From IMG/VR virus record IMGVR_UViG_3300033273_000282, positions 96,001 to 160,000 of that record: 64,000 bases of DNA. The stretch is one strand, 5' to 3'. Shown here one piece after another: positions 1 to 42,509 of this stretch (position 1 is its first letter; each line of letters opens with the position of its first letter). Below the pieces are notes generated by a model. That model ran no database searches and was not told the origin of the DNA. It was given only the letters and a program-made list of their open reading frames with translations. A program made the position numbers and the translations under genes. Source of the stretch: a virus. Its lineage: Duplodnaviria > Caudoviricetes.

Positions 1-244
1 CAGACCAAAAACTTTAGGCTCAATTATTATTCCCAGTGAGGACTGTTTCATTCAGGGAACCCTGATGAAAAAACATTTCGCTTTCAAATGTACAGTGGAC
101 AGGGAGCAATCCTTGGTTGTAACTAAACCCACCTACATTCTTGAGTTTACAACAAACCCAGTCAATACTCTTCAACTGTGTAGAGATTGGTTCCAACAAT
201 ACGAAGACGGACTAATTAAAATCGTTGACAGATCTACTTTATGA
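1..244 (+). CDS. 3' part of a hypothetical protein (truncated by window start)
   Basis: Frame starting at position 2 is open (RPKTLGSIII...KIVDRSTL) to TGA 242-244, which overlaps the next ATG at 241 (ATGA coupling). Confidence 0.65.
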   Translation, partial: RPKTLGSIIIPSEDCFIQGTLMKKHFAFKCTVDREQSLVVTKPTYILEFTTNPVNTLQLCRDWFQQYEDGLIKIVDRSTL

Positions 245-933
245 TTGAGGCTGGAGTAGCAATTCGTGATTTTGGACATAAATTAACCACACTATTCTAC
301 AGTGATTGTCCAAAAGGTTTTAAGTTTATTGGTGACGACCCAGAGAATCAAGTAATCAAGATTCCACCAGAGGTTATTCAATACGGTTTAGACATTCGTG
401 GTCTTACAGGTGATGAGCCTAAGAGACCTGTTAATCAATACTTACATCAATTCTATCTACACAATAGATGTTTGGTGTTCACAAAAGGCATTTGGATGTC
501 AGAGACAGCAGGCGTTCCTCATGCTTTGGTGTACAAACCAGGCACACATCTCAGTTTTAAGATGGCTGGTATGACACGATTGACCTGCCTAACTGATGGT
601 GGGGAGTGTATGTGCGTTGGTCCAGATCCTGCTGATCCTGAACTTGGATATTATGACCGCAAGGTACATAAGGTTGATAGTAAGATCGAACTCAACCCAG
701 AGTCTGATAAGATCGATGTAATCATCGCCACACAACATATGAGGTATGGTGATAAAGAGATCGGTCCTGGTACACCATTTCGTGTCACGAAACCAGATAC
801 ATTGAGGTTGTTAAAACCTGGATATGTGGTAGAATATTGGCTGGCAGACGTGGATTTCTATCGCACGATGCATGAATACTTTGAGATGTGGGAAAGTGAC
901 CGCATTACTTTTGTGGAGCGTAGACCAAAATGA
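241..933 (+). CDS. Hypothetical protein, 230 aa
   Basis: Long ORF with ATGA overlaps at both ends; no motif recognised. Confidence 0.75.
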   Translation: MIEAGVAIRDFGHKLTTLFYSDCPKGFKFIGDDPENQVIKIPPEVIQYGLDIRGLTGDEPKRPVNQYLHQFYLHNRCLVFTKGIWMSETAGVPHALVYKPGTHLSFKMAGMTRLTCLTDGGECMCVGPDPADPELGYYDRKVHKVDSKIELNPESDKIDVIIATQHMRYGDKEIGPGTPFRVTKPDTLRLLKPGYVVEYWLADVDFYRTMHEYFEMWESDRITFVERRPK

Positions 934-1205
934 TTCCTCACAAGCACCTGAAAAGAGAACAACTGGAAGAGTTGTATTCTATTCTGGATGATTATGATAG
1001 TGAGCATGAGCTTACTGAATGGTTTAGATATGTTCTGTGTATGAATGATGGAGACTCCACAATTCATGCGTGTTCTGCTCAAGGACTCCACGTTATTCAG
1101 TGGCATCTAGATGAATGGGATGAAGAAGATGAGGAAAACTATAGATTATGGTGGACCGATGACGATGAGCCTGAGTGGGACTTCGACGATGACGAAGAAG
1201 AGTGA
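930..1205 (+). CDS. Hypothetical protein with very acidic, Trp-rich C-terminus
   Basis: ATGA overlap with upstream gene; 20 of the last 31 residues are D/E. Confidence 0.75.
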   Translation: MIPHKHLKREQLEELYSILDDYDSEHELTEWFRYVLCMNDGDSTIHACSAQGLHVIQWHLDEWDEEDEENYRLWWTDDDEPEWDFDDDEEE

Positions 1206-1258
1206 CAGTTCTCAAACTGGCTGGCATTGTGGCATGAGGTACCAGAATCCGCTATACT
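1202..1258 (+). promoter_or_regulatory. Early promoter cassette (inverted-repeat box + -10)
   Basis: GTGACAGTT-CTCA-AACTGGC at 1202-1221; TATACT at 1253-1258. Confidence 0.65.
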
Positions 1259-1288
1259 ATGAATGTCAACGAAATGACCCACTGTCCA

Positions 1289-1822
1289 ATGAAAGCATTT
1301 TTCGAGGACGTTCTGACCCTCCCATTCAAGACCAACAGTCAGGACAATCCGCTTCACGAGTTACAGGTGAAGGACCTGCTCGATAAGCATAACATTAAGT
1401 ACGAATGGCAGCCCAATGGTAGCCAGAACTTCCCTGATTTCCGTGTTCATCTTGCTAACGGGAAGACCCTTGATCTAGAATGTAAGTCCTCTCAGCAGGC
1501 ACATCCTACTTACAATGGTGGTCTCCCTCATGAAGGTGCTGTGTATATTTTCAGCAGCAAGAAGTACAATGAGACTACAGTATTCTTTGCGGACGATGTA
1601 GTCTCTCAGTCTAAGCGCAATATGTACAACTCCCTGGTGGCAGATCTTCGCGCTGTTCTCAAGACTTATCAGATGGATGATGAGTGGCAGAATGATGAGC
1701 GTGGATTTGACTTCTACGTTCGTAACATGTACACTCAGTCTGGTGGTAAAGAAAAGACTGACTATTTCACCCACGCTGCCCGCTCTCTCTGCGAATCCAA
1801 TGTTCTCAATCATAACTGGTGA
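1289..1822 (+). CDS. PD-(D/E)xK nuclease, type II restriction endonuclease-like
   Basis: FPDFRVHLANGKTLDLECKS gives PD-x13-ExK; overlaps a DNA methyltransferase by 23 nt. Start at 1289 or 1274 preferred, because ATG 1259 abuts the -10 box. Confidence 0.7.
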   Translation: MKAFFEDVLTLPFKTNSQDNPLHELQVKDLLDKHNIKYEWQPNGSQNFPDFRVHLANGKTLDLECKSSQQAHPTYNGGLPHEGAVYIFSSKKYNETTVFFADDVVSQSKRNMYNSLVADLRAVLKTYQMDDEWQNDERGFDFYVRNMYTQSGGKEKTDYFTHAARSLCESNVLNHNW

Positions 1823-2678
1823 TTGCCAGGAAAAGTTGAAAGCCTTTGATGACAACTCTTTCCAGTCATGTATCACTGATCCACCATACGGTATGGGTAT
1901 GGAACACTGGGATCATTCTGTCCCCAATGTAGACGTTTGGCGTGAAGTATTTCGTGTGCTTCGCCCTGGTGCGTTCTGTCTTGCCTTCTGTTCTCCTGAG
2001 TTGTATCACCGTCTCGCATGTAATGTTGAGGACGCTGGTTTCAACATCAAAGATCAGATTATGTGGATGACCACCACAAAGATGCCCAAGCCCAATAGAC
2101 TCAAGCCAGCACATGAGCCTATTGTTGTAGCACAGAAGCCCTACACAGGTAGTATCAAATCCTGTATGGAAAAGTGGGGATGTGGTATGATTGACACTGA
2201 GACCACTCGTATCCCATGGGATAAGTTACCTCCGAAAGGTTGGGTAAAGGGTGGTGGTAAGCGTCGTACATTTGGTAAAGATGGAAACACTAAAGGTTCT
2301 GGTGCTGAGTATGGCACTGTGGATGCTAATCCTGCTGGTCGCTATCCCTCAAACATTATTGGGGAAGTAGAGAGTGAGCATCAGAAGTATTTCTATGCTC
2401 CTCGTGCTACTCGTAAAGAGAAAGGTGAGGACAATAATCACCCTACGGTCAAGCCAGTCTCACTGATGGAGTATCTCATTCGTGTCTATTCTCCTGCTGG
2501 TAGTATTGTTCTGGATCCTTTCTGTGGTTCTGGGAGTACAGGTGTCGCGGCACTCAATGTAAATCGTGATTTCTATGGGATCGAGATTGATTCCAATTAT
2601 GCTGCCATCGCTGAGCGGCGGTGTGCGGATGTTAAAGTGGACGATGTGATCATGGTCGCCACGATCCCTGGTGTATAG
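1800..2678 (+). CDS. Amino (N6-A/N4-C) DNA methyltransferase, beta-class motif order
   Basis: IITGDC..., DPPY (1878-1889) near the N-terminus, HPTVKP, and DPFCGSGSTG near the C-terminus. Start MFSIITGD at 1800 rather than the track's 1677. Confidence 0.9.
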   Translation: MFSIITGDCQEKLKAFDDNSFQSCITDPPYGMGMEHWDHSVPNVDVWREVFRVLRPGAFCLAFCSPELYHRLACNVEDAGFNIKDQIMWMTTTKMPKPNRLKPAHEPIVVAQKPYTGSIKSCMEKWGCGMIDTETTRIPWDKLPPKGWVKGGGKRRTFGKDGNTKGSGAEYGTVDANPAGRYPSNIIGEVESEHQKYFYAPRATRKEKGEDNNHPTVKPVSLMEYLIRVYSPAGSIVLDPFCGSGSTGVAALNVNRDFYGIEIDSNYAAIAERRCADVKVDDVIMVATIPGV

Positions 2679-2699
2679 TATTTCTGTTGAGGCAATCCA

Positions 2700-2849
2700 A
2701 TGAATCTCACTAAAGTCGAAGTTCAGGCAATCATCACTGCTCTCCAGTTGATGAACATTCGTGACCAGAACAATCAGGAGAGGATTCATGGTGTAGACTA
2801 CAGCGACATCGCTAAGAAGATGGAAGACTATCTCTATCGCATGTCGTGA
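2700..2849 (+). CDS. Small hypothetical protein, 49 aa (not in ORF track)
   Basis: MNLTKVEVQAIITALQLM...YLYRMS*, downstream of TATAGT at 2674-2679. Confidence 0.6.
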   Translation: MNLTKVEVQAIITALQLMNIRDQNNQERIHGVDYSDIAKKMEDYLYRMS

Positions 2850-2892
2850 AGTTACTCTTTGTCGTGAGCGGAGTCTGGACACTCCATAACCT

Positions 2893-3333
2893 ATGTCAGT
2901 TGCCATCTCTTTTTCAGGCTATAATCAGCAGCGGAGACTCACCCGCACTGTCATTGATTGGTTTTGCCCCAGATTTATTGGGAAGCATAACATTGCCATT
3001 GATGTAGTAACTCGTGGCATGTTGCGTGAGGGTAACTATGGATCATGTGCTATCATGGATTCATGCTCACGCCCCCGAGAGTTTGAGATTGAGTTACATG
3101 CTCGTCTCAACAAGTTTGACTATCTCACGACGCTGATTCATGAGTTGATTCATGTCAAGCAGCGTGTAAAGCGTGAGCATGTCACAAAATACGATAAGAA
3201 CTATTGGTTCTCTCGTATGATCCCCGATGAGACATCATATGATGATGAGCCATGGGAGATCGAAGCACATAGAGATGAATCATGGATCACAAAGATCTGT
3301 ATTCACGAACTGGGGCTTGACATCCCCGCCTAA
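2893..3333 (+). CDS. Putative zinc metallopeptidase (HExxH)
   Basis: TTLIHELIHVKQ and a downstream YDDEPWEIEA third-ligand-type segment. Confidence 0.75.
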   Translation: MSVAISFSGYNQQRRLTRTVIDWFCPRFIGKHNIAIDVVTRGMLREGNYGSCAIMDSCSRPREFEIELHARLNKFDYLTTLIHELIHVKQRVKREHVTKYDKNYWFSRMIPDETSYDDEPWEIEAHRDESWITKICIHELGLDIPA

Positions 3334-3345
3334 TACTGGTAAAGT
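3317..3345 (+). promoter_or_regulatory. Host sigma70-type promoter
   Basis: TTGACA (3317-3322), 17 nt, TAAAGT (3340-3345), upstream of the 3406 ORF. Confidence 0.6.
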
Positions 3346-3405
3346 AGTTAAGTTGCTCAGGCAAGTCTGCCCCCAGCAACACCAAAGCAAATCTGCTAAA
3401 TTAAC

Positions 3406-4410
3406 ATGCCTAACAAAGCACATTTTGTCAACATCTCCAAGATCTCTGGTCCTTCAGTTAATGACTGTCAGGCTCCGATGATTGATGGTCGTAGTTATAG
3501 CGTCCTGCGTCGTGAGTCTCGTACGCTCAGTAGCATCATCACCGAGAATGAGAGTGGACAGACTTACAATGTCTTCCGCGCTACTGGTACTGACCAAGAG
3601 AATCTGAAGCGCATCCGTAATGCCCTTCGCGTCTTTGGTTATAAAGTCGATGAGGACATTCCCTACATCTTTGATGATGGTCAGTTGATCGATGGTTACA
3701 CTCGTTTCGAGGCTATCGAGCAAGAGGGTTATTCTTCCTGGATCTTTAACGTGGTCCAAGCCAAAGAAGGATTCAACCGTGAAGATGTAGCACGAGAGAT
3801 CGGTCTCGGTAAGAACAACCACTGGAACGCATTTAAGGCAGCCACTCTTAACGACTGGCAGAAAGTGATCGCCGCTCGTATTGAAGAGTTGTGTGATAAT
3901 GATGCTGCCAATATGCCCACCGTGGGTCAGATTGTGGATTTCATTAACACCATCGATCACTCCTTTACTCAGAAGAAGGTAGCCACTCTCGCTGAAGAGT
4001 GTATTGCCAAGAAGATGAGTTCTCTCACCATGGAGAGTTTCAGCACTCGTTCTGCTCGTAAGAAAGCAGTATCTATGCTCGCTGAAGAAGGACGTGCCAG
4101 CAAGAATCTTGTGGTGCTGAATGGATCTGGTGACCGTACTTACATCTACCGTACTATCGTAGAGATCATGGAGAAGTTCTACGCTACTGGTGAAGTTCCT
4201 GATCTAGTCTCCTTCCTCCAAGATGTTCCCGCAGAGGAAGCCGAAGACATGCGCCGTGAGATTCGTCAGAAGATGGATCATTTCAACAACATCATCGATG
4301 CTGTTGTTGCTGCTCGCATGGAGCAAGGCGCATCCTTTAAGCTCTTTGATCTTAAGGGATTCCTGCCCCAGGTGATCGGAGTTGAGAAGAACAGCATCAT
4401 CTCGGTGTGA
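3406..4410 (+). CDS. ParB/Srx-like N-terminal domain protein
   Basis: NLKRIRNALRVFGY...IPYIF..GQLIDGYTRFEAI resembles the ParB-N DG(H/Y)xR core. Confidence 0.55.
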   Translation: MPNKAHFVNISKISGPSVNDCQAPMIDGRSYSVLRRESRTLSSIITENESGQTYNVFRATGTDQENLKRIRNALRVFGYKVDEDIPYIFDDGQLIDGYTRFEAIEQEGYSSWIFNVVQAKEGFNREDVAREIGLGKNNHWNAFKAATLNDWQKVIAARIEELCDNDAANMPTVGQIVDFINTIDHSFTQKKVATLAEECIAKKMSSLTMESFSTRSARKKAVSMLAEEGRASKNLVVLNGSGDRTYIYRTIVEIMEKFYATGEVPDLVSFLQDVPAEEAEDMRREIRQKMDHFNNIIDAVVAARMEQGASFKLFDLKGFLPQVIGVEKNSIISV

Positions 4411-4465
4411 CACTCACCTGAACCGTCCACTGACCCCGCTTCGGCGGGGTTTTTTAGTTTATACT
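4407..4465 (+). promoter_or_regulatory. Early promoter cassette
   Basis: GTGACACT...AACCGTCCAC at 4407-4430, 29 nt, TATACT at 4460-4465. Confidence 0.65.
4433..4455 (+). terminator. Rho-independent terminator lying inside the next promoter spacer
   Basis: ACCCCGC-TTCG-GCGGGGT stem with C(UUCG)G loop followed by a T run. Confidence 0.8.
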
Positions 4466-4487
4466 GATTTCATCAACGCAAGACACG

Positions 4488-5738
4488 ATGTTCACCCTCC
4501 GTCCTCACCAACAGCGTACCGTCAATGCTCTCGCTGCTGCTGACCGTGGCACTGTCTACATCCCCACTGGTGGCGGCAAGACTCTCTGTATCATGGAAGA
4601 CCTCGCTCGCTTCCTCAGCAGCGCCCAGGGACCCTCTGTGACCGTTGTGGTTGCCCCGCGCATCATGCTGGCTCTTCAGCTGTGTGAAGAGTTCCGTGAG
4701 CATCCTGGTGTGATGCGTTCTGACGTGTTCATGGGGCATGTTCACAGCGGCGAGACTCCCCATTTCCGTACAACTAACAGCGACAAGATCGGTCTGTTTG
4801 TTGATATGTGTAAGTCTGCTCAGGCTCACGCTATCATCTTCACCACCTACAACTCTCTGAACAAGATTGTTGACGCTGGTATTCAGATCGACAATCTGTA
4901 TTGTGATGAGGCACACAACAGCGTACAGCGTAACTTCTTCCCTGTTGTTGCTCTCGCTGCTATAGACGCTGCTCGCGCATATTTCTTCACTGCGACTCCT
5001 AAGTATGCTAAGAATGGCAAGCGTGGCATGAACAATGGTCAGATCTACGGCACCAATCTTATCACTGTTGCTGCTCAAGAGTTGATTGAGTGTGGTAGCA
5101 TTGTTGCTCCCACCATCATTACTCACAAGACTGAGGCAATTCGCAACAAAGAGACGATTGCTTTCGTCGATGCTGACACTGTGACTGGTGTGATTGACAC
5201 TCTCGATGAGGATCAAGCCACCAAAGTTCTGGTTGCTGCTCCTTCTGCGCGGAACATCATGAACATGTTTGTCAAGACTGGTCTCAAGCAAGATCTTATT
5301 GAGCGTGGTTATTCTTGGATGATGATTACATCCAAGCATGGCGCAATCATTGACGGTAAGAAGGTCACTCGTGACCAATTCTTTGACACTCTCCACGCTT
5401 GGGGACTCGATGAGGACAAGAAGTTTGTTCTCTTCCACTATTCTATTCTCTCTGAAGGTATCAACGTGCCTGGTCTTACGCACGTTATTCTCCTTCGCCA
5501 GTTGCCAATTATCGAGATGGCGCAGACTATTGGTCGTGTGATTCGTCTTGATCGTGATGACGCGCAAGCAATCTCTAGTGGTGCGCTCACCCCTGGTAAC
5601 TGGGCTAACTATAAGAAAGGCACTGGCTTTGTTACTGTTCCTATCTACAGCAACCACGGTGCTCAGATTGCTTCACGTCTACAGCGTGTGGTAGATTGTA
5701 TCTTCACTAAGGGTAACCCTGCTGCGGCATGGGTCTGA
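4488..5738 (+). CDS. Superfamily 2 DExH helicase/ATPase (type III Res-like)
   Basis: PTGGGKT (Walker A), DEAH, FTAT (motif III), LSEGINVP, QTIGRVIR (motif VI). Confidence 0.9.
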   Translation: MFTLRPHQQRTVNALAAADRGTVYIPTGGGKTLCIMEDLARFLSSAQGPSVTVVVAPRIMLALQLCEEFREHPGVMRSDVFMGHVHSGETPHFRTTNSDKIGLFVDMCKSAQAHAIIFTTYNSLNKIVDAGIQIDNLYCDEAHNSVQRNFFPVVALAAIDAARAYFFTATPKYAKNGKRGMNNGQIYGTNLITVAAQELIECGSIVAPTIITHKTEAIRNKETIAFVDADTVTGVIDTLDEDQATKVLVAAPSARNIMNMFVKTGLKQDLIERGYSWMMITSKHGAIIDGKKVTRDQFFDTLHAWGLDEDKKFVLFHYSILSEGINVPGLTHVILLRQLPIIEMAQTIGRVIRLDRDDAQAISSGALTPGNWANYKKGTGFVTVPIYSNHGAQIASRLQRVVDCIFTKGNPAAAWV

Positions 5739-5771
5739 CCCCTTACAGGCGATTCTAGGAGGGTCTCACGA

Positions 5772-6380
5772 GTGATTAACACGATGTTCTCTATACCTCT
5801 GGTGAGGTACAGTTTGAGTGATTGGAGCAGCAAAAAGCAGTTCCTAATGTCTACTTTGGAATCTAGGCAGCTCACGATGGGTAGCGAGAGGGTATGGTCA
5901 GACTACGCGGAGAAAAGCTCAGAAAATCTATTGTTGAGCACTATCACAGGTACATTGCGCGATGAGTTAGATCAATTCGCGCAAGACTTCAGGTGTGATC
6001 CATCAATAGTGCATGCTTGGTTCGAGAAAGCATATCAAACCAACCATCACCCAGTACATAATCATGGGCATGGTGGTTGGAGTGCGGTATTGTACCTAGA
6101 TTACGATCCTGATGAGCACACACCCACCATATTTGTCAGTCCGTTTGATCATTTCATCACAGGTGAGCAGTTGACATATTTTCCCGACGTGAAAGAAGGG
6201 GATCTTATTCTATTTCCTAGTTTCCTCCACCATTACACACAGCCAAATGAGAGTCAGATCCCTCGTGCTGTGTTGTCATTCAACCTGACAGTGGATGAGC
6301 ACAATACACCATTGGCATGGGAGAGCAAGGTGGACAGTCAGAGAGCTGGACTACCACGCGACCTTTTGCCCTACTGGTGA
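5772..6380 (+). CDS. Fe(II)/2-oxoglutarate oxygenase-like protein
   Basis: HPVHNHG..WSAVLYL...EGDLILFPSFLHHYT...RAVLSFN, typical of cyanophage 2OG-Fe(II) oxygenases. Start may be ATG 5787. Confidence 0.85.
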   Translation: MINTMFSIPLVRYSLSDWSSKKQFLMSTLESRQLTMGSERVWSDYAEKSSENLLLSTITGTLRDELDQFAQDFRCDPSIVHAWFEKAYQTNHHPVHNHGHGGWSAVLYLDYDPDEHTPTIFVSPFDHFITGEQLTYFPDVKEGDLILFPSFLHHYTQPNESQIPRAVLSFNLTVDEHNTPLAWESKVDSQRAGLPRDLLPYW

Positions 6381-6413
6381 CTCTATAATAACTACATCAG
6401 CAAACAACCCCAG

Positions 6414-6584
6414 ATGACTCGCATCGAGATCAACCGTGAGCTCACCCGACTCCGCTTCGAGCGTGAGAAAGCCCAGCGTGAGGTTGACAACATCCAAGCC
6501 TGTATGAACGCTCTCATCCAGAAGCGTAACGACATGGATTTCGAGGCTAAGCACGGCGATCTGTACACCGCAATGTTCTCCTGA
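6414..6584 (+). CDS. Small coiled-coil-like hypothetical protein, 56 aa (not in track)
   Basis: MTRIEINRELTRLRF...TAMFS*, after TATAAT at 6384-6389. Confidence 0.65.
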   Translation: MTRIEINRELTRLRFEREKAQREVDNIQACMNALIQKRNDMDFEAKHGDLYTAMFS

Positions 6585-15797: not shown

Positions 15798-16187
15798 ATG
15801 GCATCCACCAGCCGTTCGTTTAAGGATTTTGATCTTTCCTTTAGGAAAAATCCTGTAACGAAGGACGTTAACACCCTAAAAAACGAAGCGGCGATCAAAG
15901 AGGCTGTAAAGAACATCGTTCGTTACAACTTCTATGAGAAGCCATTTTTGCCAGCCTTTGGTGGAAACTTATATACGCCTCTTTTTGAGCTTTGGACTTC
16001 AGGTAACAAAATCCAGTTTGAGGAAAGAGTAAAAACTCTTATCAATGCTTATGAACCTCGCGTCGTATGTTATGACGTTAAAGTGAACTTCACTGAAGAC
16101 CAAAATGATCTTAACGTTGAGATCTATTATCTGATCACTGGTCTACCAAACGTTATTGACAACATCGCAGTCATCCTCAAGAAGTAA
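15798..16187 (+). CDS. gp25: Baseplate wedge subunit gp25
   Basis: FKDFDLSF..NPVTKDV...AIKEAVKNIV...EKPFLPAFG...YEPRV; lies directly before gp6. Confidence 0.9.
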   Translation: MASTSRSFKDFDLSFRKNPVTKDVNTLKNEAAIKEAVKNIVRYNFYEKPFLPAFGGNLYTPLFELWTSGNKIQFEERVKTLINAYEPRVVCYDVKVNFTEDQNDLNVEIYYLITGLPNVIDNIAVILKK

Positions 16188-18040
16188 TGGCACTTACCCA
16201 GGTAAACTCGTTAGAATTTAACGAGATCAAAGCCCAATTAAAAGCATATCTCTCTGGTCAGGATGAATTTTCTGATTATGACTTTGAAGGATCGTCCATG
16301 TCGGTCCTTTTGGACGTTCTTGCTTACAATACTTACTATTCGGCGGTCAGTTCCAACCTGATTGTCAATGAAAACTTCCTCGACAGCGCAATTTTACGCG
16401 AAAATGTCGTAAAACTGGCTAAACTGATCGGTTACACGCCCAGAAGCTACAGATCGGCGCGTGCTAACTTCACAGTTCAAGTCCAAACGCCTTATCCATA
16501 CCCACAATCGGTCCAAATCAACGCTGGAATCTTCGCAAGTTTCGTTGGCGAAGAAAATAGCAACTATATTTTCTCAATTCCCAAAGATTTGGTCGTTTCC
16601 GTGAACACTTTGAACGGAATTGCGACTTTTAATGATGTCGTTGCCTATGAGGGCATCTTCATTAAGGATACTTTTGTAAAAAACACCTCTGATCGCCAAA
16701 GATTTATTCTTGGTAACGAAAAAGCCGATACAACGACTCTAAAAGTTGAAGTTACTCGCGGTACCATAACTGACGCCTATCTTTTGGCGACTGATATTAC
16801 CAGAGTTGACAAAACTAGCAAAAACTTCTTTTTGGAAGAATCTGAGTATAGAAGATTTGAACTTATCTTCGGTGATGGCATCATCGGAGAGGCACTTTTG
16901 AATGGAGACGTGATTGAAGCGACATATTCGCTATCTAGCGGTTCTGGTGCTAACGGATTGGACGATTTTACGTTCGCTGGCACAATTAAGGACTCGGCTA
17001 ACAACCCAATCACCTCTGGAATCACTCTAACGCTCGATACACCTCCTGACGGCGGTTCTGAAGCGGAAACAGTGACTTCTATCAAGTATTCTGCTCCAAA
17101 ATTCTACTCTAGTTTCGGTAGAGCAGTAACTACGAAAGATTATGAGTCGATTATTCCTCAAATCTATCCAAACGTTCAATCTATTGTCGCATTTGGTGGA
17201 GAACAAGCAGAACCTCCAGAATACGGCAAAGTTATGATTGCCATTAAGCCTAAAAACGCAGATAAACTCTCTATCTCGGAAAAAGAGGCAGTTCTTAAGA
17301 AAATCCGTGATTATTCTGTAGGTGCGGTCGAGCCAAAGATCATAGATCCATCCGTTGTCTATATTGATCTTACCTCTTTTGTATATTTCAATCCAAACCT
17401 CACCAGACGCTCCCAGGAGGAGCTGAAACAGGTTATTTTCACAACTCTGACCTCTTTGAACCAGACGAAAGAGTTTAATAAGTTTGGAGGCAAATTTAAG
17501 TATTCCAAACTACAGAAAATTATCGATGATGCTGAAAAGTCAATTACGTCGAACATTACTCGCATCAGAATGCGTAAGAATGTCAACGTAACACTCAACC
17601 AGCGTTTTAACTACACCATTTGCTATGGTAATAGAATTAACGCTCAACTTGAATCGCCAAGTTTCCTCTCTAATGGATTTAAGAGAGTAGACGGCGGTAA
17701 TTTCATATATTATTTGAATGACGACGGTCTTGGCACCGTTAGGCTTTTTTACATCACCGATGCGGGTGCCACACAATATATTGGTGGCAACTGGGGGACT
17801 GTTGACTACGAAAGAGGCGAAATTACCATTAACGACTTGATCATTGATGAAGTTGTTGGTAGCAGCCAAAATACCCTCCAGTTCTCGGTCGTACCTGAGT
17901 CAAATGATCTCGTAGCACTCCGAGAAACCTATTTGACATTGGGTATAGATAACCTAGTGGTAAATGTAATAGATGATGAGATTGCGAGCGGTTCTAATAC
18001 CGCAGGTACAGGTATTATCCCAGAATCCAGCTATAGTTAA
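16187..18040 (+). CDS. gp6: Baseplate wedge subunit gp6
   Basis: LEFNEIKAQLKAYL...FSDYDFEGS.MSVLLDVLAYNTYY...FLDSA; RAVTTKDY; YGKVMIAIKP. Confidence 0.93.
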   Translation: MALTQVNSLEFNEIKAQLKAYLSGQDEFSDYDFEGSSMSVLLDVLAYNTYYSAVSSNLIVNENFLDSAILRENVVKLAKLIGYTPRSYRSARANFTVQVQTPYPYPQSVQINAGIFASFVGEENSNYIFSIPKDLVVSVNTLNGIATFNDVVAYEGIFIKDTFVKNTSDRQRFILGNEKADTTTLKVEVTRGTITDAYLLATDITRVDKTSKNFFLEESEYRRFELIFGDGIIGEALLNGDVIEATYSLSSGSGANGLDDFTFAGTIKDSANNPITSGITLTLDTPPDGGSEAETVTSIKYSAPKFYSSFGRAVTTKDYESIIPQIYPNVQSIVAFGGEQAEPPEYGKVMIAIKPKNADKLSISEKEAVLKKIRDYSVGAVEPKIIDPSVVYIDLTSFVYFNPNLTRRSQEELKQVIFTTLTSLNQTKEFNKFGGKFKYSKLQKIIDDAEKSITSNITRIRMRKNVNVTLNQRFNYTICYGNRINAQLESPSFLSNGFKRVDGGNFIYYLNDDGLGTVRLFYITDAGATQYIGGNWGTVDYERGEITINDLIIDEVVGSSQNTLQFSVVPESNDLVALRETYLTLGIDNLVVNVIDDEIASGSNTAGTGIIPESSYS

Positions 18041-18046
18041 ACCCTA

Positions 18047-21000
18047 ATGGCAGTTGAAAGGTCATCTTGGCGCGTAGCGTCTTGGCAGACTCCCTCCACC
18101 CAGGTGGGAGTCTCTCCAATTGATGCTACAGTCTCACCTGAGGTTAAAGACAGGATATCTGATAGAGTTGAGGAATTCTTACCCCAATTCATCAGAGAGG
18201 ATTATCCTGATTTCATTCAGTTCCTGAAGTATTACTACAGGAGTCAGGAACTGAAGGGTAACCCCCTGGACATCATTGGGAACTTTGATGACTACTATAA
18301 TATCGACAATCTTAATGATCTTGTCGAATCTACCGTCACCTCTGGTTCCGTAAGCATTGATGCGTCTATTATTGACGTACAGAACACTAAGGACTTCCCA
18401 TCTGAGGGTTTGATCCTTATTGACGAAGAAATTATATACTACAGAGAAAAAACTAACACTCAGTTTAGAGGGTGTGTTCGTGGCTTCCATGCGACCACGA
18501 ATATTGGTCTAATTAAGGAATATACGTTTGCTGAGTCTGAACCAGCAGAACATACGTTCCAATCTGAGGTAATTAACCTCAATAACTTCTTTGCGCTGTT
18601 TATTCTCGAAAGATTCAGAACTCAGTTCTCAGAATCGTTCCCTAACAAGTTTGCCGACGGTATTAGAGATTCTTCGGTCACAAAACGACTGAAAGACTTC
18701 TATGCGGCTAAAGGAACCTCCAGATCTTTCAAATATCTGATGAGGGTTCTCTTTGGTGTAGAATCTACCATTCTATATCCAAAAGATAGAATTTTCAAGC
18801 CATCTGATGCTTACTATAGCACCAGAGAGATTATTCGCGCTAAAGCCATCTCTGGTAACCCTGTAGAACTTACAGGGGAAGTTTTGTACCAAGATGCTGA
18901 CCCAAATGATCCAAATGTAGGCAATGCCCGCATTTACGTTAAAACTGTTGTAGAGGTTTTCACCGAAGACGGTAAAATCTACGAATTGGATGTAGATACC
19001 GAAAATGGCACTGGATCCTTCACCACACCTTACAAAACTATTCTTGCTGAAGATACCAGCTCAAACTTAAGTCAAGATTTCATTACTGTTGACTCCACAC
19101 TTGGTTGGCCAGAGACTAAAGGAAGTTTCCGAATCAATAATGAAGTCTTTGAGTATGACGAGAAAACTGTTACACAATTCCTTGGTGTAACCCGTGCTAG
19201 ACAAGATACTCTAGCAGCTAACCATCTTGCTGGTTCTGAGGTTATCTCTGCCTTTGGTATTTACGGTTATTCCAATGTAGATGGCAGTAGAATTGATATT
19301 GCTGTATTTGGCGGCACTAGAGGTGTCAATCTGACCAATGGAGGCAAATATTACGTACAAGACTCTAAAGTCACTACTCCTGCCGCTCCTGGCTTCGATT
19401 CACTCGATCCTATCTGGAGTTCCTTCATTTACAACGTTAGAAAGCTTCTGACGGGTACGAAGATCGAACTTTCTTCTCCAGACTCCCAAGGAAGAGTAGA
19501 AGCACTGATCACAACCTCCAAACCCCATGGTTTGAGACGTGATGACAAAGTGGTCGTTCTTAATGCTCCAGAAGACGTTTACAACAGAGAGTTTATTGTT
19601 GTTGGTACAGCAAACGATACTCAGTTTACTGTGCGTCTCCCAGTCATTCCTATTGCTGGTGTAAACGTTGATTTCTTAGTAACTAGAGAATTTGCGAAAT
19701 CTAGTTCTACAGACACAAGTATTAACCTGAATATTAAGGATGTTCCCGCAGACATCCAGAATACTTATAGATCAGATACCCACGCTATCGTAGCGTCTTC
19801 TGGTTTGCCAAGCCATCAAATTGGTCCATTCGCCCAAGGTATTGACCTTGATCCTGGCAACCAACGCTATCTGAAGCGTATCCCACTGACTACACTTACA
19901 AAATCGACAAAAACCCCAACTCCAGTTGGTCAAGTCGGTATTGGTGTTAATGGTGTACCATTTTTCTCATATAAGTCGGAAGACTTCCGACTTTATGGTG
20001 GTGTTAAAGAAATTAGCGTAATTAACGCTGGTGATGGTTACGACATCACCAATCCCCCTATTGTGGAGTTTGAGCAACTTTGGAAACCAGGAACTAACTA
20101 TTTCCTCAACCAAAGAGTCCGCAATAGCGTAGGTAACAGATATAAAAACCTTGGCAGTGGTAAATCCGCAGAACGTGGAACTGAACCCACTGCTACTGAC
20201 GGTAGCCTTACTGTAGACGGTTCCTGCCTTTGGGAACTTGAGGGTGTCTCTGCCGAGGCAACTGTTTCGGTTTCGGGTCGAGTTTTTGCGATTAACGTAA
20301 CAAATGGTGGTCAAAATTATACCACTGCTCCTACTGTCTCTATTAGTGGTGGTAACCCTACGGTTCAGGCAGCTGCTACTGCCACTATTACTTCTGGCGT
20401 GGTCACTGCTATTAGTGTCACTGCTGAGGGTTCTGGATACACTAGCGTCCCAGTTGTCACTCTAAGTGGTGGCGGCGGTAGTGGTGCTACAGCAGAAGCC
20501 GTTGTTCGTGGCGGTCTGGAAGCAGATGGCATTACTATTACAAACCCAGGTTCTAACTATTCAGAAAGACCTTCTATCACTCTGATTTCTGGTACAGGTG
20601 CTGTAGCATATCCTTCCATTGTTAATGGGAAGATTGCTTCTATCATTCTGACATATGGTGGTAAAAACTACTATGGTCCTCCTGACGTTATCATTACTGG
20701 TGATGGTGTAGGTGCTGTGGCATTTGCTGAGATTGATTCTAATACACAGCAAGTTACTTCTATTAGAGTTACAAACGGTGGTATTGGATATACCGCTGGT
20801 AAAACATTTGTAGATATTGTATATCCTGGTACTGGCGCTTCTTTCCAAGTAGAACTGCCCATCCTCAACTATAACAAAGCCGCAACTCCAGAAGAGTTTG
20901 GATTGACAAGTGCTCAGATGACTGCGTACAAGATTGCTGATGCTGCCAGTGGCGTTTCCATTAAAGGTGCCAACTTTGCCGTATATGGCGGTGAATATGG

Positions 21001-24000
21001 ATACATGTACAATCCCAAGAAGCTTCGCTTCTTACTGAAGGATAACGTCAGCGACGGAAACAACTCAGAACTCAATCCAACTAGACACTCACCTATTATT
21101 GGTTGGGCTTTTGATGGTCATCCCATCTATGGTCCTTACGGATACGCTGATAAAGAGAATAAAAACCCATTCAACCAATACAAGCAGATGGTTTCCAGCT
21201 ATAGGCTGAGAACCAACAGAGATGCGCTTGTACAAGGTTTAACTGACCGTATGGGTACGTATATTGAAGATTACGAATATGTTGAAGGGTCTGGTGACTT
21301 GGACCGATACAACGGGCGTTATTGCGTAACACCAGAATTTCCTAATGGCGTATACGCATACTTCTGTGCCATTGATGGTACAACTGGTAATCCCAAGTTC
21401 CCATACTTTATTGGTCCAGAATTCTACTCACAAGCAGACAGCATTAACTGGACAGGTAATGGTCTTCAGCGCCTCTTCACTGAAGACGCTGTACGTTACA
21501 AGGCTCCATATATTGCCGTTGATGAAGCCGTTGTTAGAAGAAAATATCTTGGGGAAGGAACTGAGTTCCTGTTGGCAATGGAAGATGCCACAACTCCCAT
21601 TGTTCTTGAAAACTACGCCAACAATAACACGGAACCTGTATATATTGTATTTGACGATGTTGGTATTGGATACTATGATTACTTCCCAACAATCAAGGGT
21701 GGTAAGACTGATTCTCTGTATGTTTCGGCTACAAACAGATACTTCTCCGAAGGTATTGACCAGTACCTGATCGAAGGTGCTGGATTTGGATATAAAGTCA
21801 ATGATAGACTTATATTTGACGAGACTGGCACTGGAGGCAGTGGCATTTCTGCTCGTGTTGGTAGAATTACTGGCGAAACTGTAAGTGGCATGACTTACTC
21901 CGTCAATCCCGACACTGATGTAATCACAGCAACCATTACAACTGAAAGTGACCACTTTATCAAGCCAGATGAATTTATTGATGTCACTATCACAGACAAT
22001 TATGTCAATGAAGACATCAAGGTCAAGATCATCAACGATAAGTACCACTTTAGCTATTTTGACGCTACTGACTATCGCCAAAGCAGCCCAGGTAGACTTC
22101 AGCAAGGTGATCTAACTATTACTGGCGGTCAAGATTATCTAAACGGCACTTATAACAATATTCGCCTCAGTGGTGGATCTGGCGAAGGTGCTATTGCTAA
22201 TATCATCGTTACTGGCGGAGCAGTCACCAATGTAACTATTACCGACCAAGGTAAGAACTATCTGGACAATGATGTCCTGACAGTTAACGATGCTCAACTC
22301 GGCGGGGGCGGTGGATCTGGCTTTAGTATTGATGTTGGTGAAGTTCTTAAGACTGGAGAACTGATCGATCAGAACTGGACCATTTTTGCTGGTAGTGGAT
22401 ACACTACAGGTGTATACTATAACGTTCCACTGTTCAATGGTCAGTCTTCTGGTGAAGGTGCTGAGTTTACTATTACAGTTAACAACAACCAAGAAGTTTC
22501 TAGTGTTGTTCTAACTAAGGCGGGTTCTGGATACAGAGCTGGAGAACCATTGACTGCCAACAATCTTGATATCGGTAATGGCAATGGTTTCACTCTTACA
22601 CCAACACAAGTTTCGATTGAATATACCCTAAGAGCCAGTGCTGCTCACAATCTTAAGGTTGGCGATACTGTTGTTATCACAAACAGCAATCCCGCTGAGT
22701 ATGATGGTACTTTTGTTGTTACAGGTACTTCTACTCAGAGAAGATTCCAATTTAAGAATCCAACAAGCCAGTTTGTTCCCAACGAAGCAATTCCAACAAC
22801 TACAGTCATTTACTGTAGGGAACCTAACCTTAATCTGATCAACGGACACGCTTACACCTTTGATACTTCTGATACCTCTAATACAGATAGAAGACTGGAG
22901 TTCACCTTCGATAAGGAGAATACCAATATCTTCACCTACAAGAATATCACCGATGTAGATAATGACCCTGTAACTGGACAACAACTGTCCACTCAGGTTC
23001 TCATTAAGGACATTCCTGGCACACTGTTCTATTTTGATATCAACGGCAACGTTGACGGTAGCTTCTTCAGCGTAATCCAAGATCCTTACATCGGATCGAA
23101 TACGGTCACATCTGTAACTGCTACAACTGTATCATTTGTACTTCCAAATGAGCCTGACTCTGGATATGCTAAGAGCAATGGTGTAATCTACTCTACAAGT
23201 TCCATTTACCCAAGCGGCGGTATCGCTTCTATCAATATTGGTGACAAAGGTAGAAACTATTCCACTCTTCCCAAATTCACCAGTGTTACTAGATCTGGTA
23301 ACGGTGCTACTGCTACATGTACTATTTCTGGTTTTGTAGAAGACGTTGCTGTTATTGAAAATGGAACTGGTTACGAATCTAGCCAACCACCCTCTGTATA
23401 CTGCTCACTTCCAGATTTTGTAGATCTTACCCTCGATAAAGTCTTTGGTACTTTCTCCACAGGTGATGTTGTCACCTCGGAGCAAGTCCTCACTGGAGAT
23501 AGTGCTCGTGGTAAGGTAATTAGCTGGGATGCTAACACATCGACTCTCAGAGTTCAACCCCTGAGAAATAATATTACTGGTGCTACAGATCGTGGCTTCC
23601 TGATGTTCAACCAAGGAATTGCTGCTCGTAAGAACGTCTTTAGTGGTCCAAACCAAGCAGAAATTACTAACGTTGTTGGTACACAGGCAACTGTTGCTGC
23701 TATTGTTCCTGCTTCTGGTCCTGAACTTGGTACTATCTCTAACATTGCTATTAACAATAGCGGTAGTCATTATAGAAAGGCACCTACAATTTACATTGAT
23801 GATCCTTACTATGGTGGCGTCAAAGCAGTTACTATCACCAATCAGAACACTTCTGCCAATTTCCAAGCTGGCACATACACTGGAGTAACTCAAAAATCCG
23901 TCGCACCTACTGGTGGTATTGGCGTTGAGTTTACAGTAGTAGTTGACGCTGCTACATTTGACATCACTTCGGTGACGGTGGAGAGTGGCGATGAGGGTAG

Positions 24001-42299: not shown

Positions 42300-42509
42300 A
42301 TGGATGTAAACCTTATTATTTCTACATTACAACGTAAAGTTTCTGAGTTGACCTTGAGTAACATTATGTTGGAAGCGAAAATTCTCGATTTAACTAACCA
42401 GTTAAATAGTATCAACCAAGAAAAAAACTCACCAGAGAATGCTATAAATGGCAACGAGGATCAAACTCAAAAGCTCAGTAACAGCCAGCCAGGTTCCAAC
42501 GACTTCTGA
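42300..42509 (+). CDS. Small coiled-coil hypothetical protein
   Basis: LIISTLQRKVSELTLSNIMLEAKI heptad pattern. Confidence 0.65.
   Translation: MDVNLIISTLQRKVSELTLSNIMLEAKILDLTNQLNSINQEKNSPENAINGNEDQTQKLSNSQPGSNDF

Follow-up and report, generated by a model that had tools for sequence, protein, structure and literature searches.

The window analysed here, a 64,000-nt stretch of an IMG/VR virus record (IMGVR_UViG_3300033273_000282, positions 96,001 to 160,000), carries two overlapping genes, coding for a small predicted PD-(D/E)XK nuclease and for a beta-class DNA methyltransferase (MTase). Since the two genes are kept together across many phages, they probably constitute a phage-borne Type II restriction-modification (R-M) module. 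The initial annotation had described them as a complete type II-like R-M pair. This description holds as far as genes, fold and linkage are concerned: both genes are intact, the nuclease model has a restriction-enzyme-like fold, and the linkage is reciprocal. The nuclease likely stands for a restriction enzyme family that is new and made up of small proteins (177 aa). Features of the locus are listed in Table 1.

Table 1. Features of the nuclease-methyltransferase locus (window positions)
Feature	Position	Strand	Description
Promoter-like cassette	1202..1258	+	Intergenic; palindromic box at ~1204-1222; TATACT at 1253-1258, ~30 nt downstream
Nuclease gene	1289..1822	+	177 aa from ATG 1289; phrog_18119; candidate Type II restriction endonuclease, PD-(D/E)XK
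Nuclease catalytic signature (putative)	1355..1486	+	H33-E34 at 1355-1360; P59-D60 at 1433-1438; E74-x-K76 at 1478-1486
RGFDFYxRxMY segment of nuclease	1700..1732	+	Conserved among homologues; falls in predicted homodimer interface
Nuclease/MTase overlap	1800..1822	+	23 nt; 3' end of nuclease gene over 5' end of MTase gene
Beta-class DNA methyltransferase gene	1800..2678	+	292 aa from ATG 1800; DPPY at 1878-1889; FCGSGS at 2520-2537

Both open reading frames, as well as the PD-x13-ExK, DPPY and FxGxG motifs, are located where the initial annotation had placed them, and the 23-nt overlap is real. A nuclease start at position 1259, however, has to be corrected. The longest frame (ORF 1259..1822, 187 aa, whose ATG 1259 starts the residue numbering used here) contains two upstream in-frame ATGs, 1259 and 1274; the conserved core, as delimited by homologues and by the PHROG profile, starts only at residue 11, which corresponds to ATG 1289. 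Because the -10-like TATACT hexamer directly abuts ATG 1259, ATG 1289 is the likelier translation start.

In the nuclease, P59-D60 is followed, after exactly 13 residues, by E74-C75-K76 (nt 1433-1486). Residues E34, P59, D60, E74 and K76 do not vary among 32 diverse homologues sharing 28-52% identity with the window protein, so this motif is more than a chance occurrence. The signature is likewise invariant in 25 close homologues, and no damaged copy of the nuclease was seen across 83 loci. Marine viral metagenomes are rich in the family (330 close homologues), and IMG/VR matches in the family of the R-M pair number 123 and 176. Giant-virus-like contigs and Micromonas pusilla virus SP1 contain remote relatives, recognised by structure and by sequence; a scan of bacterial and archaeal genome contigs with the close-family alignment retrieved no relative. 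In PHROG the family (phrog_18119) is annotated as "unknown", and its members are called "hypothetical protein" in every phage record found. Sequence searches of Pfam, NCBIfam, PADLOC and PDB sequences with the nuclease gave no match, and our literature search found no paper describing this family or this gene pair.

The structural model of the nuclease (AF2, pLDDT 84) confidently displays a PD-(D/E)XK fold that is nearest to EcoRV-type restriction enzymes. EcoRV itself is the top solved structure in the fold search (Z 8.1, rmsd 3.1, 110 aligned residues), and further matches include ThaI, HincII, SwaI, NlaIV, NhoI, HhaI and PvuII. Among ESM Atlas models, the nearest foreign structure cluster is PF09233 Endonuc-EcoRV (TM 0.49), and the AFDB structure matches include one "Type II restriction endonuclease". 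Foldseek search of the model against PDB returned nothing at E <= 1e-3. The scores overlap the common range of PD-(D/E)XK proteins, in which I-Ssp6803I reaches Z 7.5 and one non-nuclease Z 7.7.

Homodimer prediction gave a score of 0.72, compared with 0.01 for the best of three controls; the score mark used is reached by 20 of 30 proteins whose solved structure is a pair of one chain and by 1 of 23 proteins solved as single chains. Separate runs share at least 93% of contacts, with a partner pLDDT of at least 89, and the predicted interface comprises residues 146-163 in the C-terminal helical region. As a prediction, the model favours association of the two chains: the nuclease is probably a symmetric homodimer, as befits a palindromic target (Type IIP), with the qualification that the favourable score may reflect likeness, because dimers of similar nucleases have already been solved.

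The same fold comparison accommodates an alternative that we consider unlikely, namely that the MTase is an ordinary anti-restriction ("orphan-like") enzyme, while the nuclease serves another process (recombination, repair or packaging) and shares just the operon. It might then act, for example, as a junction resolvase of the Hjc/RecU type or as a nuclease that degrades host DNA in general. Hjc-type resolvases (up to Z 7.6) and RecU-like PBP-related factor A nearly match EcoRV in the fold search (Z 6.7-7.6; range for Hjc/RecU-type resolvases, Z 6.2-7.6), a Pfam scan of the 32 diverse family members yielded weak matches only, to NERD, Hjc, TnsA and Vsr, and solitary MTases are common in phages (PMC4176335). 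However, the nuclease possesses the extra C-terminal helical dimerisation region, which Hjc-type resolvases (~115-135 residues) do not have. This alternative is also opposed by the genomic distribution of both genes, described below.

The MTase belongs to the PF01555 N6_N4_Mtase family (E 1.7e-38; 133.2 bits, Pfam cut-off 26.7; profile positions 4-220 of 221) and matches the PADLOC profile MTase_II (E 1.1e-42). Motif IV (DPPY, aa 27-30) is located N-terminally to motif I (FCGSGS, aa 241-246), and the DPPY sequence suggests that the modification is probably N6-adenine. Relatives in PDB comprise a DpnA-named MTase, CcrM, RsrI and MboIIA. These are uninformative on specificity, because the C-terminal catalytic part alone aligns. 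In the 200-kb carrier genome, the MTase is the sole PF01555 gene found, and a search for D12-class Dam found none.

Linkage of nuclease and MTase in other phages had been set in advance as a check on the R-M reading, and both genes proved to be reciprocally linked across phage lineages. Wherever the nuclease occurs in the phage database (nine records), an MTase of more than 60% identity is present in the same record, and these nine are the only records in that database with an MTase so close. In 64 of 83 nuclease-centred loci (3 phage records and 80 from IMG/VR), the MTase is found at most 4 kb away, mostly with the 23-nt overlap. Five records in which the nuclease appeared solitary were tested: three contain a 79% identical MTase about 10 kb off; the remaining two, merely 13-20% complete, revealed no PF01555 MTase. 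Viewed from the side of the MTase (80 IMG/VR loci), a nuclease of the family is present in the same record in 77 cases; it lies within 3 kb upstream in 70 loci and about 10 kb distant in three, and in four loci the family is represented by a remote homologue (hhalign probability 96.5%).

Distant nuclease homologues adjoin three different MTase architectures, which amounts to partner swapping. The neighbour is a P0002-like MTase (66-67% identical) in L094 and L095, a putative MTase of the SPPY type in L091 and L096, and a gamma-class Eco57I/N6_Mtase enzyme in L087 and L097; in two further cases (P0192 and P0148), no MTase was found beside the nuclease. A resolvase would not be expected next to unrelated MTase classes. 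Together with the near-obligate, reciprocal linkage, maintained within the same genome even at 10 kb separation, this argues against separate jobs of the two proteins and for an R-M pair. A shared third gene was considered as well and rejected. The ParB-like protein encoded at 3406-4410 was compared with products of genes that separate R from M in other phages (the phrog_2615 gene and a 465-aa gene); there was no significant similarity, and just a short LxDxxTRxE match was obtained.

The carrier record has 200,309 bp and is 100% complete according to CheckV. Its baseplate gp6 is 63% identical to that of P-HM1/P-HM2/MED4-213, and a search for a tyrosine integrase gave no match. These features agree with the earlier designation as a lytic cyanophage and fit a complete T4-like marine cyanomyovirus of virulent type. 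Megablast search with positions 1-6000 of the window retrieved no match in the phage collection. The carrier genome strongly avoids CCGG, GGCC, TGCA, AGCT and CGCG (in 200 kb, there are 0 copies of CCGG, 13 of GGCC and 64 of TGCA). As an indication of the site recognized by the pair, palindrome avoidance was rejected, since AGCT, GGCC, TGCA and CCGG are avoided in pooled loci of other cyanophages, too.

Further, we examined how the two genes might be expressed. The cassette preceding them contains the palindromic box GACAGTT-N4-6-AACTG, situated ~30 nt before a TATACT-like -10; this combination is present about nine times in the window. A plain sigma-70 scan at this cassette detects only GTGGCA-18-TATACT (9/12), with no TTGACA-like -35, and sigma-70 sites are not enriched in region 1-6500 (12 found versus 10.7 expected). 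Judged by its sequence, the promoter-like site of the window is weak. In relatives, TTGACA-N17-TATAAT-like sites occur at a fixed position upstream of the nuclease gene: a sigma-70-like site scoring at least 10/12 is present in 20 of 60 distinct upstream regions, and the mean best score is 8.8, compared with 7.2 in shuffled sequences. Among public runs, no RNA run is listed as holding the stretch; all 20 runs with part of it are DNA metagenomes, each with at most 0.41 of sampled words.

The 23-nt overlap, which probably leads to translational coupling, is found in S-SKS1 as well, and the end of the nuclease gene and the start of the MTase gene overlap with the same alignment offset in 55 of 80 IMG/VR loci retrieved with the MTase. 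Given the shared promoter region and the overlap, both genes are most likely co-transcribed and translationally coupled. The earlier proposal that the nuclease is expressed first finds no support in this arrangement.

On the R-M reading, the pair would be transcribed as one bicistronic unit from the cassette. The 177-aa protein would act as a Mg2+-dependent PD-(D/E)XK endonuclease that cleaves, as a symmetric homodimer, a short palindromic site, and the 292-aa beta-class MTase would methylate the same site (probably to m6A), thereby protecting phage DNA. We infer sequence specificity of the nuclease, inhibition of its cleavage by methylation, and also the timing of expression. Unmethylated DNA in the infected cell, be it the host chromosome, co-infecting phages or both, would be cut, and premethylated and hemimethylated phage DNA would be spared. 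An R gene located before M would be tolerable for a lytic phage, because the incoming genome would already be methylated.

Whether such a module is used as an offensive weapon and not for defence is a separate matter, and we regard this role as possible, though doubtful. In that case, the nuclease would be made soon after entry from a promoter read by host RNA polymerase, and it would shred the unmethylated host chromosome and co-infecting phage DNA, with methylated DNA of the carrier surviving. The pair would then do in a bacteriophage what R-M pairs do in chloroviruses, and it would correspond to the hydroxymethylcytosine (hmC) system of T4 with methylation as the mark; EcoRV-like phage enzymes could then partly drive the extreme avoidance of 4-bp palindromes in marine cyanophages.

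A different use of the pair, as a selfish mobile cassette, seems rather improbable to us. The nuclease would, like a free-standing homing endonuclease, cut the genomes of co-infecting cyanophages that do not have the cassette, the MTase would immunise the carrier, and repair from the carrier would spread the cassette by means of flanking promoter/stem-loop repeats. Several observations are consistent with mobility. The phages that carry the pair have unrelated backbones, among them several genera of T4-like myoviruses as well as S-SKS1, which is not T4-like; its position relative to a uvsW-like helicase differs among loci, and its own promoter and leader travel along. The fold matches also include the PD-(D/E)XK homing enzyme I-Ssp6803I, but its score does not discriminate.

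Free-standing homing enzymes known from T4-like phages are GIY-YIG or HNH proteins. The nuclease studied here is encoded by a free-standing ORF between small genes, not in an intron, intein or conserved gene, and a protective MTase typifies R-M systems, not homing. A homing-type role of the nuclease is unlikely; moreover, a selfish cassette would concern what an R-M pair does, not what the two proteins are. With respect to the repeats, the about nine palindromic boxes with TATACT-like -10 at fixed spacing may be compared with promoter-early stem-loop (PeSL) cassettes, in which an intergenic stem-loop precedes an early sigma-70 promoter and which recur many times beside variable genes. Such cassettes have been proposed as a means of module shuffling in T4-type phages (PMC2839356, PMC4122927; these descriptions do not cover cyanophages). 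The copy preceding the nuclease gene is devoid of the TTGACA-like -35 that many relatives have.

Finally, it is very improbable that the nuclease is a modification-dependent (Type IIM/IV-like) enzyme or a strand-discriminating, MutH-/Vsr-like nicking enzyme reading the mark of the MTase for repair or replication control: DpnI, MutH and Sau3AI are among its fold matches (Z 4.4-4.8), one family member matches Vsr weakly (E 0.026), and E. coli dcm and vsr genes also overlap, but these fold matches are far weaker than the EcoRV-type ones, a methyl-dependent cutter encoded next to the producer of its substrate would amount to self-destruction, the MTase class varies among homologues, and the full two-metal-type PD...ExK site is kept along with the predicted symmetric dimer.

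Complete R-M systems are reportedly nearly absent from virulent phages (PMC4176335), and cyanophage MTases are usually taken as counter-defence (e.g. PMC12801897). Our analysis identifies an unannotated nuclease family, abundant in marine viromes, as a near-obligate partner of one cyanophage MTase, so that an "orphan" MTase becomes a probable R-M module. Such a module may provide some cyanomyoviruses, which do not have the hmC system of T4, with a means to destroy DNA of hosts or rivals while sparing their own. Cultured carriers, S-CAM4 and S-SKS1, represent tractable material for this question.

Among known systems, the R-M pairs of chloroviruses (PBCV-1 and relatives; CviAI, CviAII, CviJI) also consist of adjacent genes in lytic viruses, coding for a small site-specific endonuclease and an MTase; the viral DNA carries methylation, and that of the host is degraded at an early stage (PMC7019647). 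In contrast, the present pair belongs to a tailed T4-like phage with a bacterial host. The earlier statement on intact pairs in chloroviruses goes too far if only those are meant, since cyanomyovirus records annotate such pairs, too: in GenBank, a "restriction endonuclease" is found beside a "DNA adenine methylase" in P-HM2, Syn33, S-RIM12, ACG-2014a and S-MbCM100. In P-HM2 (PHM2_148/149) and the other phages named, the architecture is the same, with a ~200-aa nuclease encoded upstream of a beta-class PF01555 MTase, and the two P-HM2 genes overlap by 23 nt as well. However, P-HM2-type MTases are only 28% identical to the MTase described here, and the annotated P-HM2 endonuclease was rejected as a homologue of our nuclease (hhalign probability 0.1%).

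The best structural neighbours of the nuclease are found in the EcoRV branch of blunt-cutting Type IIP enzymes (HincII, SwaI, NlaIV, ThaI, PvuII, NgoPII-like). Common features are the alpha/beta PD-(D/E)XK core, the E...PD...(D/E)xK signature, small size and a symmetric homodimer, in our case predicted. On the other hand, sequence identity to these enzymes is just 8-12%, Z 8.1 and TM 0.49 are not decisive, and the predicted dimer interface of our nuclease uses the C-terminal helical region. The partner MTase of EcoRV itself is of another class.

In phage T4, hydroxymethylcytosine marks self, and endonucleases II and IV degrade cytosine DNA. The logic proposed here would be analogous, in that phage DNA bears a covalent mark and DNA in the same cell without this mark can be destroyed by a phage nuclease, although T4 relies on global base replacement and unrelated nucleases, whereas here the mark would be site-specific methylation.

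R-M systems on phages are rare: nine systems were detected in 831 phage genomes, mostly temperate ones (Oliveira et al. 2014, PMC4176335). The pair shares with them that a phage genome carries complete Type II-like R-M genes; it differs in that this genome is T4-like and of virulent type, without an integrase match, and in belonging to a family that is abundant in marine viromes.

The window opens with a series of small genes, all on one strand, among which the nuclease ORF and the ORF of the methyltransferase (P0002) overlap by 23 nt (see table). The methyltransferase matches PF01555 (N6_N4_Mtase) over the whole profile (E 1.7e-38) and the PADLOC Type II methyltransferase model (E 1.1e-42). 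The initial annotation, a PD-x13-ExK nuclease overlapping a DPPY/FxGxG methyltransferase, is thereby confirmed. The nuclease most likely starts at ATG 1289, giving 177 aa, because residue 11 of the ORF is where every homologue, and also the PHROG profile, begins, the -10-like hexamer TATACT (1253-1258) directly abuts ATG 1259, and the leader "-10, 8 nt, CAACG" is common to other promoter cassettes of the window.

Features of the cassette, its surroundings and related loci (window coordinates unless a locus of a relative is named)
Feature	Position	Strand	Description
Gene directly upstream	930-1205		91 aa; phrog_25880, function unassigned in PHROG
Promoter-like cassette	1202-1258		intergenic; member of a repeated element, palindromic box then TATACT-like -10
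Nuclease ORF	1259-1822	+	187 aa; P59-D60, x13, E74-C75-K76
Methyltransferase ORF	1800-2678 (ATG 1800)	+	292 aa, different frame from nuclease; DPPY near N terminus, FCGSGS near C terminus
HExxH protein	2893-3333		small; weak SprT-like match; phrog_10499
334-aa protein	3406-4410		phrog_27790; LIDGYTRFE motif
Helicase	4488-5738		UvsW-like ResIII/DEAD
Baseplate genes gp25/gp6	16187-18040
Giant ORF	18047-31390		4447 aa
Giant ORF	33010-39690		2226 aa
Giant ORF	42448-49626		2392 aa
Giant ORF	50207-61108		3633 aa
Inserted genes	L001:4631-5584; L014:4092-5054; L125:2039-3001; L003:4503-5900		between nuclease and methyltransferase
Divergent nuclease	L125:1283-1960		also in L126, L131, L151 (IMG/VR contigs)

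No match to the nuclease was found in Pfam, NCBIfam, PADLOC or PDB sequences; its family, PHROG 18119, is labelled "unknown function" and its GenBank homologues "hypothetical protein". Close homologues (n=330; at least 63% identity among the 120 listed) come nearly all from marine metagenomes, and a profile search, taken to E 0.001, retrieved 712 cluster representatives. Residues E34, P59, D60, E74, K76, P83, N86 and R155 are invariant in 32 representatives, 28-52% identical to the window protein; this set comprises the classical PD-(D/E)XK metal-binding site and a few further residues. The catalytic site is thus intact and under purifying selection.

The AlphaFold2 model, for which 25 sequences were used (mean pLDDT 84), was compared exhaustively with 48,161 solved chains. 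The best match is EcoRV (Z 8.1, rmsd 3.1 Å, 110 aligned); NhoI, HhaI, ThaI, HincII, SwaI, NlaIV, DpnI and PvuII were also retrieved, and Hjc resolvases (Z 6.2-7.6) and the homing enzyme I-Ssp6803I (Z 7.5) score little below EcoRV. The first foreign cluster found by structure in the ESM Atlas is the EcoRV family (TM 0.49), language-model features retrieve clusters with NgoPII, NgoBV, SwaI-like and ThaI domains, and AlphaFold DB clusters contain a 24%-identical protein at TM 0.71 as well as a "Type II restriction endonuclease". The model thus places the nuclease in the PD-(D/E)XK superfamily, nearest to the EcoRV-like branch, such scores being no proof of a restriction enzyme. Two copies are predicted to associate with a score of 0.72 (0.01 for the best of three controls). 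Of 30 proteins solved as one-chain pairs, 20 reached the mark, as did one of 23 single-chain structures. Contact agreement between runs is at least 93% and partner pLDDT at least 89; the predicted interface is formed by helix 117-138 together with the conserved RGFDFYxRxMY segment. The model supports a symmetric homodimer without showing binding, and its score may partly reflect likeness, because similar nuclease dimers have already been solved. Taken together, the searches show a complete methyltransferase and, as modelled, a nuclease of restriction-enzyme-like fold.

Gene linkage provides the decisive evidence. Whether the two genes occur together across cyanophages, a check proposed in the initial annotation, was answered in the affirmative. 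In the phage collection, the nuclease is present in nine records (four S-CAM4, two ACG-2014j, two S-SKS1 and marine virus AG-345-F15), and methyltransferases more than 60% identical to that of the window occur in these nine only (9/9). S-SKS1 is not T4-like, and its overlap is also 23 nt. When 83 loci (three phage records and 80 from IMG/VR) were surveyed from the nuclease, the methyltransferase lay within 4 kb in 64, mostly overlapping; an insert of 0.2-1.4 kb separates the genes in about 17 loci. The 19 loci with no methyltransferase nearby belong mostly to one subfamily adjoining a ligase-like gene. A 79%-identical methyltransferase lies about 10 kb away in three of five such records tested, the other two being 13-20% complete.

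A survey of 80 IMG/VR loci from the methyltransferase gave a similar picture: the nuclease overlaps it in 55, is separated by an insert in 15 and lies about 10 kb away in three, while two loci are cut by the contig end and one falls into no class. In the remaining four, a divergent 224-225-aa protein stands upstream, a remote member of the nuclease family (hhalign probability 96.5%, E 8e-10) with PDF...ECKS intact. This branch, detected by profile comparison only, substitutes for the usual nuclease beside the same methyltransferase (76% identical). The nuclease evolves far faster than its partner, and the surveys show near-obligate co-inheritance.

More distant homologues change partners. Loci L094 and L095 (33-36% identical to the window nuclease) carry a P0002-like methyltransferase (66-67% identical, 17-20 nt overlap); L091 and L096 (38-40%) carry another putative methyltransferase, in which motif I precedes TSPPY and whose two copies share 65% identity. 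In L097 (tandem) and L087 (convergent), giant-virus-like contigs, nucleases of 28-31% identity accompany gamma-class Eco57I/N6_Mtase enzymes. No methyltransferase was seen near homologues P0192 and P0148 (32-37%). Being nearly always beside a DNA methyltransferase of any class, the family bears the signature of restriction enzymes, not that of resolvases or repair nucleases.

The promoter-like cassette combines a palindromic box (GACAGTT, 4-6 nt, AACTG) with a TATACT-like -10 about 30 nt downstream; nine copies in the window were confirmed by eye. A generic sigma-70 scan gives GTGGCA-18-TATACT (9/12) here, and the region contains no excess of such sites (12 against 10.7 expected). Near-consensus TTGACA-N17-TATAAT is often found upstream of homologous nuclease genes in related phages: among 60 distinct upstream regions, 20 reach 10/12 or more (mean best 8.8, 7.2 in shuffles), and in 13 of these 20 the distance from the end of the -10 to the conserved Met is 38-42 nt. 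A private promoter, as initially annotated, is therefore a conserved feature of the cassette; its sigma-70 character would suggest early firing. A look for RNA data among public sequencing runs turned up none. Since the genes overlap and share this promoter, both proteins are most likely produced together, and the earlier proposal that the nuclease is expressed first finds no support.

Leaders of related nuclease genes (L002, L003, L006, L014, L016, L036, L039, L071 and others) share a hairpin in a constant position, 10-35 nt before the start, in the order CAAC, 5-7-bp stem, loop, stem, GAGA, ATG. Stems differ wholly between lineages (CGGGC/GUCCG, CUUACGC/GCGUAAG, CGCACU/AGUGCG, CGAAA/UUUCG, CUAACG/CGUUAG), which looks like covariation. 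Of 42 distinct leaders, 28 reach a folding energy of -6 kcal/mol or lower. The hairpin may control nuclease translation; it is lost from the window's own leader (1259-1288).

Genes inserted within the pair in about 15-17 of 80 loci encode either phrog_2615 (317-329 aa) or phrog_33124 (465 aa), neither with an assigned function or a Pfam match. In some loci they overlap the methyltransferase start by 1 nt, and they could be a third component or mobile inserts. The window's 334-aa protein, whose motif resembles ParB/sulfiredoxin-type DGxxR motifs, has no significant similarity to them. The 91-aa protein is found only in the closest relatives; its C-terminal third is very acidic, with D/E runs and W, a composition that, at a guess, recalls DNA-mimic anti-restriction proteins. 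Of the 83 loci, 10 have the HExxH protein close to the cassette and 36 have the helicase at up to about 3 kb, on either side, so the pair sits in a variable region beside this helicase.

The complete record (G000; 200,309 bp, 100% complete by CheckV, the window being bases 96001-160000) holds one nuclease-family copy, one PF01555 methyltransferase and no detected D12-class Dam. Baseplate gp6 shares 63% identity with its counterparts in the T4-like cyanomyoviruses P-HM1, P-HM2 and MED4-213, and no tyrosine integrase was found in the genome; "lytic T4-like cyanophage" is a fair description. The four giant ORFs following gp25/gp6 presumably encode structural or fibre proteins.

Short palindromes are extremely avoided throughout this genome, window included. 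CCGG is absent (about 200-450 expected), TGCA has 64 copies (about 800 expected), GGCC 13, CGCG 108 and AGCT 258; at least 12 6-bp palindromes, e.g. CTCGAG, GTCGAC, GACGTC, ACGCGT and GGCGCC, have none (21-36 expected). GATC, GANTC, TCGA and CTAG are not avoided. As pooled loci of other marine cyanophages also avoid AGCT, GGCC, TGCA and CCGG, more weakly, avoidance was rejected as a pointer to the recognition site of the pair. The cassette itself shares the profile, and therefore has not been acquired recently from a genome of different bias.

As a Type II restriction-modification module, the pair would work as follows. The nuclease dimer would cut a short palindrome, on which the DPPY enzyme would place N6-methyladenine; phage DNA would enter the cell already methylated, so that the order nuclease before methyltransferase would be harmless, and unmethylated DNA inside would be cut. 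Candidate targets are the host chromosome (nucleotide recycling, shut-off) or rival phages; alternatively, the pair may be mainly a selfish module.

Phage-borne restriction-modification systems are known but rare: a survey of 831 phage genomes counted nine, mostly in temperate phages (PMC4176335). The idea of such a pair in a cyanomyovirus is not new, because a "restriction endonuclease" beside a "DNA adenine methylase" is already annotated in GenBank for P-HM2, Syn33, S-RIM12, ACG-2014a and S-MbCM100. The P-HM2 pair also overlaps by 23 nt, although its nuclease is unrelated to ours. What is new is the assignment of an abundant unannotated nuclease family as partner of this methyltransferase, P0002; we found no paper describing it. 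The closest known analogue is that of chloroviruses, whose packaged enzymes are considered to degrade host DNA within minutes but not to cause mutual exclusion (PMC7019647).
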